Origin: Escherichia phage ECML-363
Sequence record: OL631483.1
Length of the DNA stretch: 64,000 nt
Reading direction: 5' to 3' (one strand)
In this document: positions 22,762 through 62,551 of the stretch, piece by piece
Layout: each line of letters starts with the position of its first letter
Numbering within the stretch: position 1 is the stretch's first letter
The notes under the pieces: model-generated
The model's database searches: none
What the model was told of the DNA's origin: nothing
What the model saw: only the letters and a program-made list of their open reading frames with translations
Translations under genes and position numbers: made by a program

Positions 22762-22765
22762 CAAT

Positions 22766-22795
22766 GGGGACCGAAAGGTCCCCATGTTTTTATTT
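22766..22795 (+). terminator. Terminator after gene 54
   Basis: GGGGACC-GAAA-GGTCCCC hairpin followed by a T-rich tract. Confidence 0.6.
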
Positions 22796-23080
22796 ACGGA
22801 ATGAAATAAAAGCAGCAACTGAAGAAACAGAGGTTTCTTCAATATAAACCTCAATTTTTACCGGAGCTTCTGACTCAAATTTACCTGTTACTACACCCTG
22901 AAAAATACTTTCAGTCTGTTCTGGCTTTGAAAAATTTTCAGAAGGAAAAATTCCAAACTTTTTATCGGTTCCGAAAATTTTAATAAATTCATCGTAAACT
23001 GCTTCATTAAAAGCATTATCAGCAGGAATAACGCCTTCAACTACAAGTTCTTGACCTAAAAAGCGCAAAGAAGATTTCAT
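22790..23080 (-). CDS. Hypothetical protein (T4 alt.-3 position)
   Basis: 96 aa ORF with its own early-type promoter and GAGGAA RBS. Confidence 0.6.
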   Translation of the reverse strand: MKSSLRFLGQELVVEGVIPADNAFNEAVYDEFIKIFGTDKKFGIFPSENFSKPEQTESIFQGVVTGKFESEAPVKIEVYIEETSVSSVAAFISFRK

Positions 23081-23088
23081 TTTGTGTT

Positions 23089-23141
23089 CCTCATGTTATG
23101 TCAGTAAGACTACTATAACACAACACGAGGGACTTGTAAAC
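23089..23141 (-). promoter_or_regulatory. Early (sigma70-type) promoter plus leader cassette upstream of the alt.-3-like ORF
   Basis: Minus strand GTTTAC(-35), ~18 nt spacer, TATAGT(-10), then AACAUGAGGAAC leader with SD; near-identical copy at 38886-38939. Confidence 0.6.
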
Positions 23142-25198
23142 TACATTTTGAACTTTTTAGACATTCCGTTAATGTTAACCAAAGAAGCTAAGATTTGAGA
23201 AACTTCGTTTTCCTCTTCTTTTGATTCTTCTACAAGGAATTGATTAAATCCAGCCATTGGACGAACTTCACCAGTTTCCATTAGATGGTCGCCATCATAT
23301 ACTGATTCTTCTAATTGTTCAGAAGGAGGAACGATTGTACCTTCGATTAGATACTTGTTATAAGCAGTTTCTTTCATAAAGTAAGTACTTACTTTATTAA
23401 TCTTCAGTAAAATTCCACGTGGTAGAATAACTTCAGCTTCTGATGGAAATCCTGATAAATGACCCGGAACGATAACTTTAACTCGTTCAGCTCCTTTAAT
23501 TACCATACCCACGCTAGTTTCAGCATCTTCATTAGCATATGTAGAATGACTACCCATATGCATCAAATCTTCTGCATCAACGGAACCTTCTCCTTCACCA
23601 GAAAATACTGCTCCGGAATCATCTAAGGCCATATAATTTTTACCATACTCACCAAAGATATTTGGTTTAAGTGATGTCGATACGAAGTTCTTGAAATAGA
23701 ACATTTTATTTTCAATGTTATGACGCAAAGTTTTAAAAGTAACTTCTTGTCCACGGTAAAGTGTAGTTCCTGGAGGAAGAACTGAACCTTTAACGAATGC
23801 AGAATCAAGCGTCTCAATATGTTTAATAGCTCGTTCCATATATTCTTCACGGGTAGAATCTGGTTTACCCAAAAGGAACGAGTTCATTTCAACATATGAA
23901 TCTGCGCAATAATCTTCAATTACGTCAGATTCAGCCTGAGTTAATCCTTTTGGAGTTACTTCGGTGCTTGCATATTCATACGCCTGAGCAGCGGATTCAT
24001 CAATTAATTTATAAATGCCATTCATGACAAATTGAATAATAGCTGTCTTTTCATCTGGCGTAGCTTTAGAACCTTTAACTAAATCATTGACAATTTTCTT
24101 AATAACATCAAAGCTATTAGAAATATTAATGTCAGCAAGATCGCTTAAAATTTTATCAGTTTTGTAATTAAAGAAGTCTTTATTCTTTAAATATTCCTGG
24201 GAACCTTGATATGATGTATCGCTCTGCAACTTGATAGATGGATCGCGTAAACGTGCATGGGCTAATGCAATATGATTTCGGAAACTTTCTAGTTCATAAT
24301 CGCTAGATTTAAAACGAGAAGCACTTCTCATACCGCCGATAGCTCCTTTGCTAAAGTTTGAACCAATCTGAATAACGCCAGAGTTCATTGGTCCTTCTGC
24401 TTTATATACCGGAACTTTAGATTCAAACTCTTGATATTTCTTAGCAGCGAAGCTATCACCCTGAAGTGAAGCATCAACAGTAGAATATTGAGCTTGTGCT
24501 GCTAATCGACGACTAATTTTAGTTTTCTGAATAACAGCTTGATCCGTACGCTTATCATTTTCTAAAGCAATAGAAGCAGCAACTGCGACAGCTTTAGGAA
24601 CAGCATTACCTGTTTTAACGTCTACATAAACATCACCAACCTTTGATTCAACTTTTGTGAATAACTCAGTTGAAATAGGAGGTACACCTGGAATGTCTTC
24701 TAAATTGGCATTTTTACGGTAAACCATAATATATGCATATTTCTTATCATAGTCCCAGATTTCCTTTAAAAGAACATATCGACCTGCTCCTTTAGTACGT
24801 ACTAAACGGTCAGCAATAACTTGCATTTGACGAGCAGCGCCATTTGTTTTACTTTTTAGTACGCGGAATAGGCATGCATCAATTTTATACTGTTTCATTG
24901 TTTGAAGAGCAGTATCAAAAACCGCATTAATGACACCAATTGGATTTCCACCCAAGTTTTTAAGCTTGACTAATGATAATTTCTCGTTGACACCTATCAT
25001 TACGATATGCATCATTTTGTCGCCTGGCTTAACGTTTTTATTCGTATCACCGCCAGAGGTGTATGTACAAAATCGAAATCCAGGAAGAACGCTTTCTTCA
25101 CCGGCTTGAATAGCAAAAATTTGAGGTATTTTATGCTTAGGATTTAAGTTAACAACCGGCGCCGAAGCGCCGTCAAATAATTCTGTAATAAGTTCCAT
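23141..25198 (-). CDS. Alt-family ADP-ribosyltransferase paralog
   Basis: 685 aa; N-terminus MELITELFDG shared with the adjacent paralog; C-terminal R-S-E elements (YRGQ, STS, EAEVILPRG). Confidence 0.8.
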   Translation of the reverse strand: MELITELFDGASAPVVNLNPKHKIPQIFAIQAGEESVLPGFRFCTYTSGGDTNKNVKPGDKMMHIVMIGVNEKLSLVKLKNLGGNPIGVINAVFDTALQTMKQYKIDACLFRVLKSKTNGAARQMQVIADRLVRTKGAGRYVLLKEIWDYDKKYAYIMVYRKNANLEDIPGVPPISTELFTKVESKVGDVYVDVKTGNAVPKAVAVAASIALENDKRTDQAVIQKTKISRRLAAQAQYSTVDASLQGDSFAAKKYQEFESKVPVYKAEGPMNSGVIQIGSNFSKGAIGGMRSASRFKSSDYELESFRNHIALAHARLRDPSIKLQSDTSYQGSQEYLKNKDFFNYKTDKILSDLADINISNSFDVIKKIVNDLVKGSKATPDEKTAIIQFVMNGIYKLIDESAAQAYEYASTEVTPKGLTQAESDVIEDYCADSYVEMNSFLLGKPDSTREEYMERAIKHIETLDSAFVKGSVLPPGTTLYRGQEVTFKTLRHNIENKMFYFKNFVSTSLKPNIFGEYGKNYMALDDSGAVFSGEGEGSVDAEDLMHMGSHSTYANEDAETSVGMVIKGAERVKVIVPGHLSGFPSEAEVILPRGILLKINKVSTYFMKETAYNKYLIEGTIVPPSEQLEESVYDGDHLMETGEVRPMAGFNQFLVEESKEEENEVSQILASLVNINGMSKKFKM

Positions 25199-25201
25199 GA
25201 T

Positions 25202-27298
25202 TTATCCTTGAACGAACTTGTAAGGCATGTTTGTAATATCTATGCAAGACGCAATAATTCCAAGAGATGATTCTACTTTCTGTTTAATATTTGATGAAAC
25301 AAATGATGCAAAGTCAACTCTGTCTTCTATTTCAATATCACCTGTCATTGCAACCAATTCACCAGTTTCCATTAAATGGTCTCCATCATAGATTACCGAT
25401 TCGGTGAGCTCTTCCGTGGTCATAACTTCAGCTTGAATGAGTTTTGTATTATTAGATGTTGTTCCGTCATTATTAGAAGCATCAGTTATTTTATTAACCT
25501 TGACCATCAATCCGCGTGGTAGAATAACTTCAGCTTCTGTTGCTATTCCGAGACTTCCTGGATATACAACATTAACTTTATGAGCTCCATCAATTGCCCA
25601 TCCTATTTGAACTTTAACATATTCAGGATTTTCTTTATACGCTCTTATTTCGTTTGGATTAATAGTTATTCCTTCTTCATTTTTATCAACTGTTAATTCG
25701 TTACGAGCTTCTGGTTCTAAAAGACCAATACCAGCATGTGTGATTCCAAAACGTCCAAAAATGATAGGAGTTAAAGAAGTAGATACAAAATTTCTGAAGT
25801 AGAACACTTTATTTTTAACTAACGCTTCATATATAGGAGCAGTCATACTTTGAGCACGATAAACTGTAATGCCTTCTGGTATACGGTCACCATTTTCAAA
25901 AGCTGAATCTAAGTTATTTATAGCAGATTCAATTTCTTTTTCACTCATTACATCATATCGTTCTGGATTGTAACGACCTAAAAGAAGATTATTGATGTCA
26001 GTATATCCTGAACCGCAATATTCTCTAATGCCACGCTTTTGTGATGGAGTATATTTAGAACCATCGCGGGCAATAGTAATATCAATCATTGGACCAGCAC
26101 CAATTCCAGAAAAACTGTAAATCATTCGTTTGAGGAATTTAGTTTTTGCTGCGTTCCAGGAATTTTTAGTTATTTCTTCCCAGACTTCATCTGGTTGTCC
26201 TTTACGATTTTTATTATGATTAGCAAGCCATTTATCTTTATAATCTTCAAAGAATTGATTTACAGCTGCTGCGTATTTCTCTAAACATTTTATTGAAGTA
26301 GTTGGTTCATTTTTAATTGCATTAAAAATTACTTCTTTAATTTTTTCTGAAACTTCACCGACTTGACTCATTGGAAAGAATTTATAATCATAGTGAAGTT
26401 CATCTGCCGTTCCTTCAGCAATAATTTTTGCTGCCTTTGTTTTAGAAGCTAATGAATTAATTCCAATTTTCATTTCTTCTGCTTCGGGAATTAAAGGTGC
26501 AGTAGCTGGTTTATTAAAATTAGCTGCTGTAGATTCATACTTCTGGAATAATTCACTTTCAAATCTAGAAGATTCCAATGACTGACTTTGTGCAATTGCT
26601 CTACGGGAAATTTTAACTTTAACGATTACGGCTTGGTCAGAACGTTTATCATTTTCTTGTGCAATAGATGCAGCAATTGCCTCATTTTTGGTTACTTGAG
26701 CTCCAGTATCTTTATTGATATAAACATCACCGACCTTCGATTCAACTTTAGTAAAAAGCTCGGTGCTAATTTCTGGAACTCCTGGAATGTCTTCTAGTGA
26801 TACATTTTTACGATGTATAAGAATATATGCATACTTTTTATCGTAATCCCAGAGTTCCTTAAGAAGGACGTATCTGCCACCTGAACGACTGCGGATGAGT
26901 CTATCAGCAATAAGTTGAATTTGTCGAGCTTGACCGGCGGTTTTAGACTTAAGAATACGAAGCATGCAGGCATCAATTTTATATTGACGCATTGTTTGCA
27001 TTGCAACAGTAAAAACTGAATTGATATAATTAATCGGGCTTGGACCAAGACCTTTTAATTTAGCAATTGAACCTTTAGCAGTTAATGTAAAAGGAACAAT
27101 GTGCATCATTTTATCGCCCATCTTTAAATCACGATTAGTATCACCTCCAGATGTATAGGTACATAAACGAAAGCCTGGTTGTTCAATTGCATCATCAACA
27201 TGAACTGAAAAAATTTGTGGTATTTTCTTCTTTGGATTTAAGTTTGTAATCGGAAGAGTAGTATCTTCGTCAAATAATTCTGTAATGAGTTCCATCAT
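25202..27298 (-). CDS. alt: Alt ADP-ribosyltransferase (packaged internal protein)
   Basis: 698 aa; YRAQ, STS and EAEVILPRG motifs; adjacent to gene 30 as in T4; minus-strand late promoter upstream; the true start may be the second Met at 27295. Confidence 0.8.
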   Translation of the reverse strand: MMELITELFDEDTTLPITNLNPKKKIPQIFSVHVDDAIEQPGFRLCTYTSGGDTNRDLKMGDKMMHIVPFTLTAKGSIAKLKGLGPSPINYINSVFTVAMQTMRQYKIDACMLRILKSKTAGQARQIQLIADRLIRSRSGGRYVLLKELWDYDKKYAYILIHRKNVSLEDIPGVPEISTELFTKVESKVGDVYINKDTGAQVTKNEAIAASIAQENDKRSDQAVIVKVKISRRAIAQSQSLESSRFESELFQKYESTAANFNKPATAPLIPEAEEMKIGINSLASKTKAAKIIAEGTADELHYDYKFFPMSQVGEVSEKIKEVIFNAIKNEPTTSIKCLEKYAAAVNQFFEDYKDKWLANHNKNRKGQPDEVWEEITKNSWNAAKTKFLKRMIYSFSGIGAGPMIDITIARDGSKYTPSQKRGIREYCGSGYTDINNLLLGRYNPERYDVMSEKEIESAINNLDSAFENGDRIPEGITVYRAQSMTAPIYEALVKNKVFYFRNFVSTSLTPIIFGRFGITHAGIGLLEPEARNELTVDKNEEGITINPNEIRAYKENPEYVKVQIGWAIDGAHKVNVVYPGSLGIATEAEVILPRGLMVKVNKITDASNNDGTTSNNTKLIQAEVMTTEELTESVIYDGDHLMETGELVAMTGDIEIEDRVDFASFVSSNIKQKVESSLGIIASCIDITNMPYKFVQG

Positions 27299-27318
27299 AT
27301 CCTCTCTAGTGTTTATTC

Positions 27319-27326
27319 TATTTATA
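27319..27326 (-). promoter_or_regulatory. Late promoter (TATAAATA on minus strand) for alt
   Basis: TATTTATA on plus strand ~20 nt upstream of the alt start. Confidence 0.6.
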
Positions 27327-27331
27327 AAATT

Positions 27332-27349
27332 AAAGGCCCGAAGGCCTTT
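27332..27349. terminator. Palindromic hairpin between the gene 30 operon and alt
   Basis: AAAGGCC-CGAA-GGCCTTT. Confidence 0.45.
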
Positions 27350-27536
27350 AATAATCTATTGGTAATAGAGTACGATATATTTCAAACTTTGGACCTTTTT
27401 CATAAGCATCAAAAGTTTCTGTGAATTTATTATAAGCATATGCATCTATAAATTCAATCATGATTTGCGATACAGAAGTAGAAACATCTCCACCTTCTTT
27501 TTGAGCCACGACAATTGTTTCTAAGTAAGCTTTCAT
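27348..27536 (-). CDS. Hypothetical small protein
   Basis: 62 aa ORF whose start overlaps the gene 30 stop. Confidence 0.5.
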   Translation of the reverse strand: MKAYLETIVVAQKEGGDVSTSVSQIMIEFIDAYAYNKFTETFDAYEKGPKFEIYRTLLPIDY

Positions 27537-40556: not shown

Positions 40557-41735
40557 TTAAAAGTATTTTTTAAAACTCATCATAACTTTATCATCAACAT
40601 CATTATCAATCTGTGCAACAAGATAAGATGACAGTTCTACTTCTTGTGGCGCGGATTGAACATTATCAGAATTAAGGTATTCACGAATCCAAGGATATGG
40701 ATGTTTAACCGGAGCATCGGTAATTGGGCATGGAAGACCACACTGTTTCATACGAGATACAGTTAAGTAATCAATAAAGCTCCACATGCTATTTGTATTT
40801 AATCCAGGAACATCGCCATCTTTAAATAAATGAACTGCCCAATCTTTTTCTTGGCGGTTAACTTCCATGAAAATATCAACTGCTTCTTGTTCACACTCTT
40901 GAGCAATTTTAACCCATTCATCACCATCAGTGCCAAGTTGGAGCTGACGAATAATATACTGGGTGCCTTTAAGGTGGAGTTGTTCGTCTCGAGCAATGAA
41001 TTTCATAATCTTCGCATTACCTTCCATGATTTCCATATTTTTATGGAAGTTGAAAGTACATGCAAAGGATACATAAAAACGAATAGCTTCCAGGGCATTG
41101 ATAACATGAAGGCAGAGATAAAGCGACTTCATCAATGCATATTTACATTCTTCCACATGCATAAGACTATTTGAATATGCATCTAAATCATATTCATTTT
41201 CGGAAAAACATTTAAAAATTTCTTTTGCATTTTCCCATTCGCGCGTCTTAACCAGAACATCATCATAATAACGACCAATAGATTCAGCACGTTTCATGAT
41301 AGCTTTATCTAATACAATCTCATCAAATACCTTTGACGGATCAGTATAAAGATTTCGCATAATATGAGTGTATGAACGACTGTGAATAGTTTCACTAAAA
41401 GTCCATGTAGCAACCCATGTATCAAGACTTGGGTCTGAAATTAACGACATAAGTACAGCAGACGGTGCACGACCCTGAATGCTATCTAGAAGTGATTGAT
41501 ACTTCAGGTTATTAGTAAAAATATCTTGCTGATATTGAGGAAGCTTGTTAAATTGCGCAGCATCCATCATTAAGTTTACTTCTTCAGGACGCCAGAAAAA
41601 TGATAATTGCTTTTCGGTTAAATCTTCAAAAACTTTATGGCGTTGAATATCATAACGCGCAATACCAAGACCTGAACCAAAAAACATAGGTTCTTTTAAA
41701 ACATCAACTGGATTTGTATTAAAAACTGTGCTCAT
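40557..41735 (-). CDS. nrdB: Ribonucleotide reductase small subunit, uninterrupted
   Basis: 392 aa continuous ORF; position between denA and nrdA; no intron-sized interruption. Confidence 0.93.
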   Translation of the reverse strand: MSTVFNTNPVDVLKEPMFFGSGLGIARYDIQRHKVFEDLTEKQLSFFWRPEEVNLMMDAAQFNKLPQYQQDIFTNNLKYQSLLDSIQGRAPSAVLMSLISDPSLDTWVATWTFSETIHSRSYTHIMRNLYTDPSKVFDEIVLDKAIMKRAESIGRYYDDVLVKTREWENAKEIFKCFSENEYDLDAYSNSLMHVEECKYALMKSLYLCLHVINALEAIRFYVSFACTFNFHKNMEIMEGNAKIMKFIARDEQLHLKGTQYIIRQLQLGTDGDEWVKIAQECEQEAVDIFMEVNRQEKDWAVHLFKDGDVPGLNTNSMWSFIDYLTVSRMKQCGLPCPITDAPVKHPYPWIREYLNSDNVQSAPQEVELSSYLVAQIDNDVDDKVMMSFKKYF

Positions 41736-44368: not shown

Positions 44369-44585
44369 ATTGTTTTTCCGTTAATACAGTAATATCATAG
44401 TAACAATCGGAAGAAGTTTTAACTGTGGAAATTTTATTATCAAAATACTCACGAGTCATTTTATGAGTATAGTATTTTTTACCATAAATGGTAATAGGCT
44501 GTTCTGGTCCTGGAACTTCTAACTCGCTTGGGTTAGGAAGTGTAAAAAGAACGGCACCAGAAGTATCTTTAAATCGTAAAATCAT
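44322..44585 (-). CDS. Hypothetical protein
   Basis: 87 aa ORF overlapping the start of the downstream ORF by 47 nt in another frame. Confidence 0.45.
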
Positions 44586-45442
44586 ATTGCCATTTTCCCT
44601 TTAATTGCTGGATGCGATTCATAATTTTCAAGGATAAAATCTTTCGGTTTCATGTATTCAGTTAACCAGTAAAGCTGTGTTTCGGTGTCACAATTTTCAA
44701 ACTCTATAGGCCAATCAATTTTAAGTTCGCACAGTTCTTTAGGCTCACGGCGTAAAATTTCTTTACATTGTTCTACGTGATTCATATAGATATGAGTATT
44801 ACCACCAGAAAATATCAAATCTCCTGGGATAAGATTACACATCTTAGCCATAATATGCGTCAAGGCAGCGTACGAGGCAATGTTGAATGGCAAGCCCAAG
44901 AAAACATCTACACTTCTTTGGTACCATTGTAAATCAAGATAACCATTACGCACATTAAACTGATAGAACATATGACAGGGCGGTAATGCCATTTGATTGA
45001 TTTCAGCTGGATTCCATGCTGAAACGATTTGACGTCGATCAGTTGGTAATTTTTTAATACGATCAATAGTTTCAACTAATTGATCCACACCACCGAAATC
45101 ACGCCATTGTTTACCGTATATAGGACCAAGTTCACCACTATGATATCCTAGGTCTTTAGCTTGGTTTTCATAATTGTCATCCCAGATAGTTTTACCTTGA
45201 ATAAGACTACCATGAGTAAGAAGACGTAAATCATTAACATTGGTAGAACCAGAAATAAACCATAAAAGCTCAGCAATGCATGCATTCCAGGCGAGCTTTT
45301 TAGTTGTTACTGCAGGAAAGCCTTTAGTTAAATCCCAGCGTAATTTAGTACCGAACAAAGCAATTGTTCCTGTGCCTGTTCGGTCATCAGTTTCATAGCC
45401 ATTTTCAAAAATGTCTTTAATTAAATCTTGGTATTGTTTCAT
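44582..45442 (-). CDS. td: Thymidylate synthase, uninterrupted
   Basis: 286 aa (T4 Td length); active-site PPCH motif ([10 protein letters not shown]); continuous ORF. Confidence 0.95.
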
Positions 45443-57415: not shown

Positions 57416-60400
57416 ATGGCTACTTTAAAACAAATACAATTTAAAAGAAGCAAAACGGCAGGTCAACGTCCAGCTGCTTCAGTATTAGCCGAAGGTGAAT
57501 TGGCTATAAACTTAAAAGACCGTGTACTTTTTACTAAAGATGACCAGGGAAATATTATTGATTTAGGTTTTGCTAAAGGCGGTAGTATTGACGGGAATGT
57601 TATTCATAAAGGCAATTATAACCAAACTGGCGATTATACTTTAAACGGTACATTCACCCAGACTGGTAATTTTAATTTAACCGGTATTGCTCGAGTAACT
57701 CGTGATATTATTGCTGCTGGGCAGATTATGACTGAAGGCGGAGAACTTATTACAAAAAGTTCAGGAACGGCACACGTTCGTTTTCATGATTCCGCCGACC
57801 GTGAACGCGGTATTATTTTTTCTCCTGCTAATGACGGTTTAACTACACAAGTAATTAACATCAGAGTTCAAGATTACAAAGCCGGTTCAGAAAGCACTTT
57901 CGCTTTTAATGGAAATGGTTTGTTTTCTTCACCAGAAGTTTTTGGGTGGAAATCTGTATCAACTCCGGTAATTTATACCAATAAAGTTATCACCAATAAA
58001 AAAGTTAAAGATGATTATGACATCTATTCGATGGCAGACAATGTTCCATTGTCTGAAAGCACTACTGCTATTAATCATCTTCGTGTTATGCGTAATGCAG
58101 TTGGTTCTGGTATTTTCCATGAAGTTAAAGATAATGATGGAATAACATGGTATAGTGGAGATGGATTAGACGCTTATCTTTGGTCATTTACTTGGAGCGG
58201 CGGAATTAAATCAAGTCACTCAATTTCCATCGGTTTAACACCCGGACCTAAGGATTACTCAATATTAGGACCGTCTAGTATCGCTTTAGGAGATAATGAT
58301 ACTGGATTTAAATGGCATCAAGACGGATATTATTTCAGTGTTAACAATGGCACAAAAACGTTTTTATTTAGTCCAAGCGAAACAACTAGCCTAAGAAAAT
58401 TTATAGCTGGATATTCTACTAACGGAACCGATTTAACTACTCCTCCAACTGAAAATTATGCTCTTGCTACTGTAGTGACATACCATGATAATAACGCGTT
58501 TGGGGATGGTCAGACTCTTTTAGGATATTATCAAGGCGGTAACTATCATCATTATTTCCGCGGCAAGGGCACTACAAACATTAATACTCATGGCGGTTTG
58601 TTAGTTACTCCAGGCAATATTGACGTTATTGGTGGTTCTGTTAATATCGATGGTAGAAATAATAATTCAACTTTAATGTTTAAAGGCTATACCATGGGTC
58701 AAAGCTCCGTTGATAACATGTATATAGCTGTTTGGGGAAATACTTTTACTAATCCAAGTGAAGGCACCCGTAAAAATGTCATGGAAATTTCTGATGATAT
58801 TGGATGGATGCATTATATTCAACGTAATAAAGATAATACGGTTGAAGCCGTGTTAAATGGTCAACAAACAATTAATGAAAATATTATTGCGAAAAAGGAT
58901 ATTTGGGTTGACCGAGCAGTTCATACCATTGGCGAAATCACTACAAATGCTGTTAATGGTCTTCGTATTTGGAACAATGATTACGGAGTTATTTTTAGAC
59001 GCTCAGAAGAAAGTCTTCATATTATTCCTACAGCATTTGGCGAAGGAGAAACCGGTGATATTGGGCCTTTACGTCCTCTCAGCGTAGCTTTAAATTCCGG
59101 TAAAGTTACTATTCCAGATTTACAGTCAAGTTATAATACGTTCGCTGCAAATGGTTATATTAAATTTGCTGGTCATGGGGCTGGTGCCGGTGGTTATGAT
59201 ATTCAGTATTCACAAGCTGCTCCTATTTTCCAAGAAATCGATGATGCTGCTGTAAGCAAATATTATCCTATTGTTAAACAGAAGTTTTTAAACGGTAAAG
59301 CCGTTTGGTCTTTAGGTACTGAAATTAATTCTGGTACATTTGTTTTACATCATTTGAAAGAAGATGGTTCACAAGGCCATACATCAAGATTTAATGCTGA
59401 TGGTACAGTTAATTTCCCCGATAACGTTCAAGTTGGCGGCGGTGAAGCTACTATTGCTCGTAATGGTAATATTTTCTCAGATATTTGGAAATCGTTTACT
59501 TCTGCGGGAGAAACCACAAATATTCGCGATGCAATAGCTACTCGTGTTTCTAAAGAAGGCGACACGATGACTGGTAAATTGACTTTATCGGCAGGCAATG
59601 ATGCTCTCATTTTAACTGCGGGCGAAGGTGCTTCATCACATATCCGTAGTGATGTAGGTGGTACAGGTAACTGGTATATAGGCAAAGGCGGCGGCGACAA
59701 TGGTCTAGGTTTTTATAGTTACATTACACAAGGCGGTGTATACATAACAAATAACGGCGAAATATCGCTTTCTCCTCAAGGTCAAGGAACATTTAATTTT
59801 AATAGAGATCGCCTTCATATAAACGGTACACAATGGGTTGCGCACCAAGCTGGTGATTGGAGAAACCAATGGCGACAAGAAGCGCCAATATTTGTAGATT
59901 TTGGCAATGTCGGTAATGATAGTTATTACCCGATTATCAAAGGAAAATCTGGTATTACTAATGAAGGATACATATCGGGTGTTGATTTTGGTATGCGACG
60001 CACTACTAACCAATGGGCTCAGGCTATTATCCGTGTTGGTAACCAGGAAAATGGTTCTGACCCACAAGCTATCTATGAATTTCACCACAATGGAGTTCTG
60101 TATGCTCCTAATATGGTTCAAGCTGGAGCAAGATTATCAGCTGGCGGTGGTGACCCTGTATGGACCGGCCCGTGTCTTGTTATTGGTGATAATGATACTG
60201 GATTAGTTCATGGTGGTGACGGCCGAATCAATATGGTTGCAAATGGAGCGCATATTGCTTCGTGGTCTTCATCTTATCATTCTCATCCTGGCCTTTGGGA
60301 TTCAAATGGAGCTTTTTGGACAGAAGTTGGCAAAGCAATTATTTCTCACGGCCATCTTGTCCAGGCGAATGACAGTTATTCCACATATGTCCGCGATGTT

Positions 60401-60745
60401 TATGTCCGTTCTGATATTCGTGTTAAAAAAGACCTTGTTAAATTTGAAAATGCTTCACAAACACTTTCAAAAATTAACGGTTACACTTATATGCAGAAGC
60501 GAGGCCTAGATGAAGAAGGCAATCAGAAATGGGAACCTAACGCCGGTTTGATAGCTCAAGAAGTTCAAGCTATTTTGCCTGAATTAGTTGAAGGTGACCC
60601 TGATGGCGAAGCTTTACTTCGTTTGAACTATAACGGTGTAATTGGTTTAAATACAGCTGCAATCAATGAGCATACTGCAGAAATTGCGGAACTTAAATCA
60701 GAAATTGAAGAACTTAAAGCATTAGTTAAATCATTGTTAAAATAA
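57416..60745 (+). CDS. 37: Long tail fibre distal large subunit gp37 with C-terminal chaperone-like module
   Basis: 1109 aa; C-terminal ~110 aa contains a coiled-coil tail ([22 protein letters not shown]) typical of intramolecular chaperone domains. Confidence 0.92.
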
Positions 60746-60750
60746 TAAGA

Positions 60751-60766
60751 GGGGCTTCGGCCCCTT
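60751..60766 (+). promoter_or_regulatory. GC hairpin between genes 37 and 38, adjacent to the gene 38 RBS
   Basis: GGGGC-TTCG-GCCCC flanked by AAGAGG upstream and GGAGG downstream, 10 nt before the gene 38 AUG. Confidence 0.4.
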
Positions 60767-60986
60767 GGAGGTTTATATGGCAGTAGCAGGACCGTGGGTA
60801 GGATCGTCTGCAGTAGTTAATACAGGACAAAATTGGATGGGCGGCGCGGCCCAACGATTAAGAATGGGCATTCCGTTCTGGATGAGTAATATGATAGGTC
60901 GATCTGTTGAAGTAATTCACACGCTTGGAGCAGACCATAACTTCAATGGTCAATGGTTCCGAGATAGATGTTTTGAGGCAGGTAGT

Positions 60987-61862
<876 letters not shown>

Positions 61863-61894
61863 TTTTTGAATAAATATCCTTAAAAGGAGGGTCT

Positions 61895-62551
61895 ATGGCA
61901 GCACCTAGAATATCATTTTCGCCCTCTGATATTCTATTTGGTGTTCTAGATCGCTTGTTCAAAGATAACGCTACCGGGAAAGTTCTTGCTTCCCGGGTAG
62001 CTGTCGTAGTTCTTTTGTTTATGATGGCGATTGTTTGGTATAGGGGAGATAGTTTCTTTGAGTACTATAAGCAATCAAAGTATGAAACATACAGTGAAAT
62101 TATTGAAAAGGAAAGAAATGCACGCTTTGAATCTGTCGCCCTGGAACAACTCCAGATAGTTCACATATCATCTGAGGCAGACTTTAGTGCGGTGTATTCT
62201 TTCCGCCCTAAAAACTTAAACTATTTTGTCGATATTATAGCATATGAAGGAAAATTACCTTCAACAATAAGTGAAAAATCACTTGGAGGATATCCTGTTG
62301 ATAAAACTATGGATGAATATGCAGTTCATTTAAATGGACGTCATTATTATTCCAACTCAAAATTTGCTTTTTTACCAACTAAAAAGCCTACTCCCGAAAT
62401 AAACTACATGTACAGTTGTCCATATTTTAATTTGGATAATATCTATGCTGGAACGATAACCATGTACTGGTATAGAAATGATCATATAAGTAATGACCGC
62501 CTTGAATCAATATGCGCCCAGGCGGCCAGAATATTAGGAAGGGCTAAATAA
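61895..62551 (+). CDS. t: Holin T
   Basis: 218 aa (T4 T length); N-terminal cytoplasmic segment, single TM (VAVVVLLFMMAIVWY), large periplasmic domain. Confidence 0.92.
   Translation: MAAPRISFSPSDILFGVLDRLFKDNATGKVLASRVAVVVLLFMMAIVWYRGDSFFEYYKQSKYETYSEIIEKERNARFESVALEQLQIVHISSEADFSAVYSFRPKNLNYFVDIIAYEGKLPSTISEKSLGGYPVDKTMDEYAVHLNGRHYYSNSKFAFLPTKKPTPEINYMYSCPYFNLDNIYAGTITMYWYRNDHISNDRLESICAQAARILGRAK

Follow-up and report, generated by a model that had tools for sequence, protein, structure and literature searches.

Two tandem full-length Alt-family ADP-ribosyltransferase genes at the alt locus of Escherichia phage ECML-363

The stretch of Escherichia phage ECML-363 DNA analyzed here (64 000 nucleotides (nt) of sequence record OL631483.1, hereafter the window) carries two adjacent full-length genes of the Alt family of ADP-ribosyltransferases (ARTs), both on the minus strand: alt (25202..27295, 697 amino acids) and, downstream of it, alt.-2 (23141..25198, 685 amino acids). 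The tandem pair is real; however, annotations of T2, T6 and hundreds of related phages already include it. It is the ordinary T-even state, and T4, with one working copy, is the odd one out. We propose that both proteins are made late, packaged, trimmed by the gp21 prohead protease and injected as arginine ADP-ribosyltransferases with different, perhaps overlapping, substrate sets; we would give this reading a probability of about 0.7. An earlier sequence-only reading of this DNA had seen a pair of tandem paralogs, and this part of it stands; what it did not recognize was that the pair consists of the already known alt and the intact counterpart of the T4 genes alt.-1 and alt.-2.

We assign the source phage to Tequatrovirus (T4-like phages). 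Over a 4.9-kb region around alt, the DNA is 98–99% identical to that of Yersinia phage PYps32T, RB68, RB51, RB14 and numerous further members of this genus; for RB68, RB51 and PYps32T the identity is ∼98.8%. The genes follow each other in the order gene 48, gene 54, alt.-3, the 685-residue gene (alt.-2), the 697-residue gene (alt), alt.1 and gene 30; the pair is flanked by gene 30 and alt.1 on one side and by alt.-3 and baseplate gene 54 on the other, and it lies on the strand opposite to the baseplate genes. We identify this arrangement as the usual alt locus of T-even phages, undamaged. The pair recurs in T2 and T6 with the same gene lengths (2094 and 2058 nt), two Alt-like genes are present at this locus in the records of RB68, RB51, RB14 and PYps32T, and both genes bear the RefSeq label ‘Alt-like RNA polymerase ADP-ribosyltransferase’ in many records. 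Duplications of alt in several T4-like phages were listed by Nolan et al. in 2006 (PMC1524935), the only mention found when the literature was searched for alt.-1/alt.-2.

The upstream open reading frame (ORF) is identified as alt, in its RB51/T2/T6-type allele: its product matches Pfam family PF03496 and the PHROG family phrog_802, the gene bears the name alt in the annotation of RB51, T2 and T6, and identity at the protein level is 100% to the Alt protein of phage Sa45lw and 71% to that of T4. Read from its first ATG, this ORF (25202..27298, minus strand) has 698 codons for a protein that begins MMELITELFD. The start is most likely the second ATG (27295), which gives 697 residues, agrees with the annotation of RB51 and T4 and is better spaced from the ribosome-binding site GAGAGG (27301..27306, minus strand; 5 nt from this ATG and 2 nt from the one at 27298); a start at 27298 instead would lengthen the protein by one Met. 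The 685-residue ORF, whose product likewise matches PF03496 and phrog_802, we identify as the intact ‘second copy of alt’ that is called alt.-2 in RB51 and RB14.

Full-length BLASTP alignment of the two proteins gave 42% identity with an expectation value (E) of 7e-165, far beyond chance, and so bore out the claim that these are full-length paralogs; both match phrog_802 end to end. They share a four-part layout, all on the minus strand: an N-terminal domain (Alt residues 1–238, 27295..26582; Alt.-2 residues 1–235, 25198..24494), a central region (Alt 239–411, 26581..26063; Alt.-2 236–415, 24493..23954), an ART domain (Alt 412–632, 26062..25400; Alt.-2 416–631, 23953..23306) and a C-terminal tail, the predicted propeptide (Alt 633–697, 25399..25205; Alt.-2 632–685, 23305..23144). 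The N-terminal alpha/beta domains, of ∼235 residues, are basic, with a net charge of +10 to +13, and the paralogs share ∼70% identity in them; both proteins do begin with MELITELFD, as noted earlier from the letters. The tails, 54–65 residues long, are acidic. Against T4 Alt, the Alt.-2 protein is 41–42% identical overall and ∼70% identical over residues 1–240.

The similarity is interrupted in the middle. The central regions are helical and ∼175–195 residues long; in 40-column windows the identity between Alt and Alt.-2 is 6–22%, and a profile–profile comparison of the two regions detected no similarity (hhalign probability 0.3%), so that their divergence, too, was read correctly from the letters. 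Identity between the ART domains is 30–50%; the inserts that separate STS from ExE are unrelated. An exhaustive search of cluster representatives with the Alt.-2 central region returned 0 hits; either this module does not occur outside its lineage, or the representative of its 50% cluster has another center. A homolog search with a fragment of the Alt central region returned no match either, likely a limit of the word index, as near-identical proteins are known to be in the collection. The N-terminal domain retrieved only other Alt homologs from BFVD. PF26846 (Tevenvirinae_ADPRT, N-terminal domain) is on record for the 98%-identical protein P0001 and for neighboring homologs; in our local Pfam scan it was not reported for either protein, and NCBIfam had no match for Alt or Alt.-2.

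The ART domain is recognizable in both proteins by Pfam family PF03496 (ADP-ribosyltransferase exoenzyme; E = 9.6e-38 for Alt and 1.5e-19 for Alt.-2). The ART elements that had been picked out by eye are present in both: YRAQ (residues 479–482), STS (505–507) and EAEVILPRG (587–595) in Alt; YRGQ (481–484), STS (507–509) and EAEVILPRG (587–595) in Alt.-2. On alignment the R-S-E residues are intact, and the R, S-x-S and E-x-E columns are invariant in the family alignment (n = 15 sequences). On the minus strand the catalytic residues of Alt (25529..25858) are R480 (25858..25856), S505-T-S507 (25783..25775) and E587-A-E589 (25537..25529); those of Alt.-2 (23432..23755) are R482 (23755..23753), S507-T-S509 (23680..23672) and E587-A-E589 (23440..23432).

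Structure prediction gave, for both proteins, ART folds of the R-S-E (Alt/VIP2) clade type, closest to Vis, CDTa/Ia, VIP2 and C3 (the nearest Foldseek neighbors of the Alt model being Vis, CDTa, Ia, VIP2 and C3); for Alt.-2 the predicted fold is confident in its core. A sequence search of the PDB returned no match for Alt.-2 and only weak iota/CDTa matches for Alt, and no solved Alt structure was found. The activity of T4 Alt is abolished by mutation of the second Glu of the ExE motif (PMC11404850); the inactivating mutation is named E577A in that paper, and the ExE glutamates are E574 and E576 by our count in the T4T protein. T4 Alt is reported to ADP-ribosylate the alpha subunit of host RNA polymerase and other host proteins (PMC9026906, PMC5512222). 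Alt and Alt.-2 of the window are probably both arginine ADP-ribosyltransferases.

Do the two enzymes act on the same proteins? Given central regions with no detectable similarity and unlike loops between STS and ExE, different targets are plausible. One could argue instead for redundant duplicates: both proteins would be packaged and active on essentially the same host targets (RNA polymerase alpha and others), with the second copy mainly adding dose or robustness. The catalytic and NAD-binding motifs are indeed nearly identical, e.g., FYF(K/R)NFVSTS and EAEVILPRG, one copy suffices for T4, and isolates with a single hybrid gene do occur (see below). However, such redundancy would leave unexplained why the loops next to ExE are completely different and the central regions so dissimilar; furthermore, purifying selection maintains both copies in hundreds of genomes although recombination can fuse the pair into one gene, and pure redundancy is rarely kept in this way. 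We consider redundancy unlikely and continue with the reading that two enzymes of different specificity are delivered together.

T4 Alt is a core protein, present in ∼40 copies per head and ejected into the host (PMC9026906), and mass spectrometry showed that gp21 cuts it at ITE-6 and LTE-619 (PMC5694885). At the level of motifs, both window proteins keep the ITE-6 site and an L-x-E/S site ∼55–65 residues from the C-terminus; across the family the residues of these sites vary little or not at all. In Alt the N-terminal motif I-T-E6 (27278..27286, minus strand), identical to the T4 ITE-6 site, predicts a cut before L7, and the C-terminal motif L-T-E632 (25397..25408, minus strand), which aligns with T4 LTE-619, predicts a cut before S633 that would remove 65 residues. 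In Alt.-2 the predicted N-terminal cut is again before L7, after I-T-E6 (25181..25189, minus strand), with E6 invariant in the family alignment; at the C-terminus a gp21-type motif, L-E-E631 (23303..23314, minus strand), aligned with T4 LTE-619, predicts a cut before S632 that would remove 54 residues, and here E631 is invariant and S632 nearly so. The gp21 sites and the basic N-terminal domain are conserved in both proteins, which supports packaging and processing of both indirectly; Alt and Alt.-2 are probably made late, packaged into the capsid, processed and injected.

Signals for late expression stand before the upstream gene. The late promoter reported there by the sequence-only reading is an exact match to the T4 type, TATAAATA (27326..27319, minus strand), 23 nt upstream of the alt ATG at 27295; in the window this octamer occurs 18 times versus 9.1 expected. 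Just before it, a hairpin, AAAGGCC-TTCG-GGCCTTT followed by AATTTT (27332..27349, minus strand), is probably the terminator of the gene 30/alt.1 transcript; its short T-run explains why the consensus terminator scan did not list it, and a conserved terminator upstream of alt has been described in T4-like genomes (PMC1524935). At the junction of the two genes (25196..25209, minus strand) AAGGA (25209..25205), which overlaps the 3′-end of alt, is followed by the alt stop codon TAA (25204..25202), a spacer of 3 nt and the alt.-2 ATG (25198..25196). A minus-strand terminator scan inside alt and alt.-2 found no terminator, and there is no promoter between the genes. With a gap of 3 nt and neither signal in between, the genes would be co-transcribed and possibly translationally coupled; in the simplest reading one message from the alt late promoter would cover both. 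A second exact TATAAATA lies inside alt (25922..25915, minus strand), with ∼720 nt between it and the alt.-2 start downstream; this may be an internal late promoter that serves alt.-2, or the match may be due to chance.

The lack of an own promoter and the position downstream of alt would also fit an Alt.-2 that is active but not packaged and acts late in the producing cell, as ModA and ModB act early. However, the N-terminal Alt domain is retained in full in Alt.-2 (∼70% identity), as are the ITE-6 site and the L-x-E/S site near the C-terminus. Moreover, the only Alt of natural hybrid phages has the N-terminal domain of Alt fused to the body of Alt.-2, which fits a common route of delivery. 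We regard an unpackaged Alt.-2 as quite improbable, and common delivery with Alt as the preferred reading.

That the downstream gene is functional is indicated by its conservation. In 396 phage records there is an Alt.-2 protein with an identity of 95% or more. The ratio of nonsynonymous to synonymous substitution rates (dN/dS) is 0.05 versus RB51; versus an ortholog with 75% identity (L003, from a metagenomic contig that also carries the tandem pair) it is 0.14, with synonymous sites near saturation in that comparison. From these values we identify alt.-2 as a functional gene under purifying selection. A decaying or non-catalytic duplicate, with a structural role at most, could be suspected because T4 holds only a remnant and because the Pfam score of Alt.-2 is weaker than that of Alt (70 versus 130 bits); however, the low dN/dS, the frame intact in those 396 records, the invariant catalytic residues and the confident core of the predicted ART fold rule out a pseudogene and make any such duplicate extremely improbable.

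The T4 ORFs alt.-1 and alt.-2 (61 and 67 amino acids) belong to the same gene as the 685-residue ORF of the window: over its first ∼350 nt and its final ∼20 nt the two match almost base for base; however, the T4 version has lost ∼1.7 kb internally, which covers the greater part of N-terminal domain, central region and ART domain, and lacks one base near nt 160 (a 1-bp frameshift), whereas the window gene is whole. PHROG families built on T4 Alt.-1 and Alt.-2 match residues 1–56 and 62–117 of the window Alt.-2, and the notes in T4 GenBank records (including T4T) describe alt.-1 and alt.-2 as remains of a second alt copy. We thus identify T4 alt.-1/alt.-2 as the wreck, by deletion plus frameshift, of the intact paralog. 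As T4 shows both lesions and the full-length paralog is widespread, the polarity is that of a deletion in T4 and not of an insertion elsewhere.

Annotation of the second copy is inconsistent: in RB51 it is alt.-2, in T2 (L009 5744..7801) alt.-1, in T6 (L008 4302..6359) an ‘apparent insertion in alt.-2’, and in many records a ‘hypothetical protein’. The wording of the T6 record can be ruled out as a description of the full-length form, which is a complete paralog across many phages.

Comparison of the window Alt with T4 Alt (L002 3001..5049) showed an uneven pattern. Residues 1–240 are 99% identical (synonymous divergence, dS, 0.18) and the C-terminal tail is ∼90% identical (dS 0.05), whereas identity falls to 15–45% in the central region and to 62–72% in the ART core, with dS ∼1.3. 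The jump of dS from 0.05–0.18 in the flanks to ∼1.3 in the middle marks the window alt as a recombinant (mosaic) allele.

Recombination between the paralogs themselves is indicated as well. Some phages have, between alt.1 and alt.-3, a single hybrid gene with the 5′-end of alt and the remainder of alt.-2: the crossover lies near nt 480 in phage ECML-134 (L007 1801..3861), near nt 540 in L004 (5001..7055) and near nt 660 in L005 (5001..7061), and in the further hybrids P0003 and P0004 near residues 40 and 100. In ECML-134, SCS4 and Yersinia phage PST the effector part of Alt.-2 is the only one that an Alt protein carries. Assembly artefacts were ruled out as the origin of the hybrids; the complete isolate genomes (ECML-134, SCS4 and PST) show one matching place only. 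The different crossover points indicate recurrent unequal recombination between the paralogs. The existence of natural Alt(N)–Alt.-2 hybrids indicates that the N-terminal domains are interchangeable and shows that the Alt.-2 payload can serve as the sole Alt of a viable phage. One could speculate that the alt locus is a polymorphic-effector cassette, with constant N-terminal and tail modules for delivery, a swappable payload of central region plus ART domain and a target set of its own for Alt.-2; we offer this tentatively and would not rate it an even chance. The mosaic alleles would fit it as payload exchange from phage to phage, and the hybrids as exchange within the tandem pair.

The course of events that we favor would be as follows. 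Late in infection the TATAAATA promoter before alt would drive a single transcript of alt and alt.-2, and both proteins would be incorporated into the prohead core. There gp21 would trim both after ITE-6 and at the C-terminal L-x-E site, to mature forms of ∼69 to 70 kDa. On ejection with the DNA, both would enter the next host and, while no phage gene is yet expressed, use host nicotinamide adenine dinucleotide (NAD+) to ADP-ribosylate host proteins at arginine; through central regions that are non-homologous and loops flanking ExE that differ, they would act on different, perhaps overlapping, substrate sets. The analysis itself shows which genes these are, that both are intact and under purifying selection, and what fold, catalytic residues and cleavage motifs they encode; the rest we infer, from expression and packaging through cleavage and activity to divergence of targets.

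Several points weigh against this course of events. T4 lost alt.-2 without obvious cost, so that on laboratory hosts, at least, the phage can do without this gene. The literature yielded no virion proteomics for any phage with both copies, and in open-access papers no functional or proteomic study of the second alt copy was found. alt.-2 has no late promoter of its own. The structure models, built from 15-sequence alignments, are of moderate confidence (mean predicted local distance difference test scores of 73 and 75). Finally, the divergence of targets is argued from divergence of sequence, and the substrate sets could largely overlap, as T4 Alt is reported to modify many proteins.

Among known systems, T4 Alt is the closest in locus, domain order, the R / S-T-S / E-x-E residues, gp21 sites and late promoter context; however, the central region of Alt.-2 is unrelated to that of T4 Alt. 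The T4 enzymes ModA and ModB are small and expressed early, without the Alt N-terminal domain or propeptides. Like Alt, they are phage ADP-ribosyltransferases of the R-S-E clade that act on host transcription and translation proteins; unlike Alt, they are not injected from the capsid (PMC5512222). Vis, C3, VIP2, Ia, CDTa and CPILE-a differ in being secreted bacterial toxins directed against eukaryotic proteins, with no domain for delivery by a phage capsid, and sequence identity of Alt and Alt.-2 to the Vis, C3, VIP2 and binary-toxin enzymes is only 14–28%. The small injected prohead-core proteins of T-even phages also lose a short N-terminal targeting peptide to gp21 cleavage and vary among T-evens (PMC9026906, PMC12373910); however, they are non-enzymatic, of ∼8 to 20 kDa, present in hundreds of copies per head and devoid of an ART domain.

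Both neighbors of the pair are on its strand. Upstream, alt.1 (27348..27536, minus strand, 62 amino acids), annotated as such in RB51, T4, T2 and T6, matches Pfam family PF24647 ‘Phage blade protein’ (E = 7.5e-29); its start overlaps the 3′-end of DNA ligase gene 30, and its place beside gene 30 marks the canonical position of the locus. Downstream, alt.-3 (22790..23080, minus strand, 96 amino acids), identified by its sequence and by Pfam domain DUF5498, has an early-type promoter of its own, TTTACA-17-TATAGT (23140..23112, minus strand), and shares with gene 54 a bidirectional hairpin terminator (22764..22785, both strands), seen in the sequence and in the terminator scan. In T4, mutations that extend the C-terminus of Alt.-3 lead to escape from the CmdTAC defense system (PMC11618068). 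The window Alt.-3 has a few residue differences from T4 Alt.-3 near the C-terminus.

Elsewhere, an Rfam scan of the whole 64-kb window returned no RNA family match. The ORFs 40557..41735 (392 amino acids) and 44582..45442 (minus strand, 286 amino acids) lie where the T4 map would place nrdB and td; if they are these genes, the phage appears to be without the group I introns that T4 has there. The G+C content peaks at 0.455 in 60001..62000 versus ∼0.35 elsewhere in the window; the peak covers the end of a 1109-residue ORF (57416..60745) and the ORFs that follow, possibly tail-fibre genes, a guess from their position.

For annotation the consequences are small, as the pair is already labelled in RefSeq and the remnant is explained in the T4 GenBank record. 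The mosaics and hybrids locate the separation of delivery from payload, which is useful for the engineering of capsid-delivered proteins. If the locus is indeed a cassette, the targets of Alt.-2 possibly include defense proteins, and the loss of alt.-2 in T4 would contribute to the differences in phenotype between T4 and T2/T6. Almost all work on injected ADP-ribosylation has been done in T4, the exception with one working copy. If what we infer for Alt.-2 is true, most relatives of T4, T2 and T6 among them, inject two enzymes with unrelated central regions, and the T4 model may understate how widely the host is modified in the first seconds after infection.

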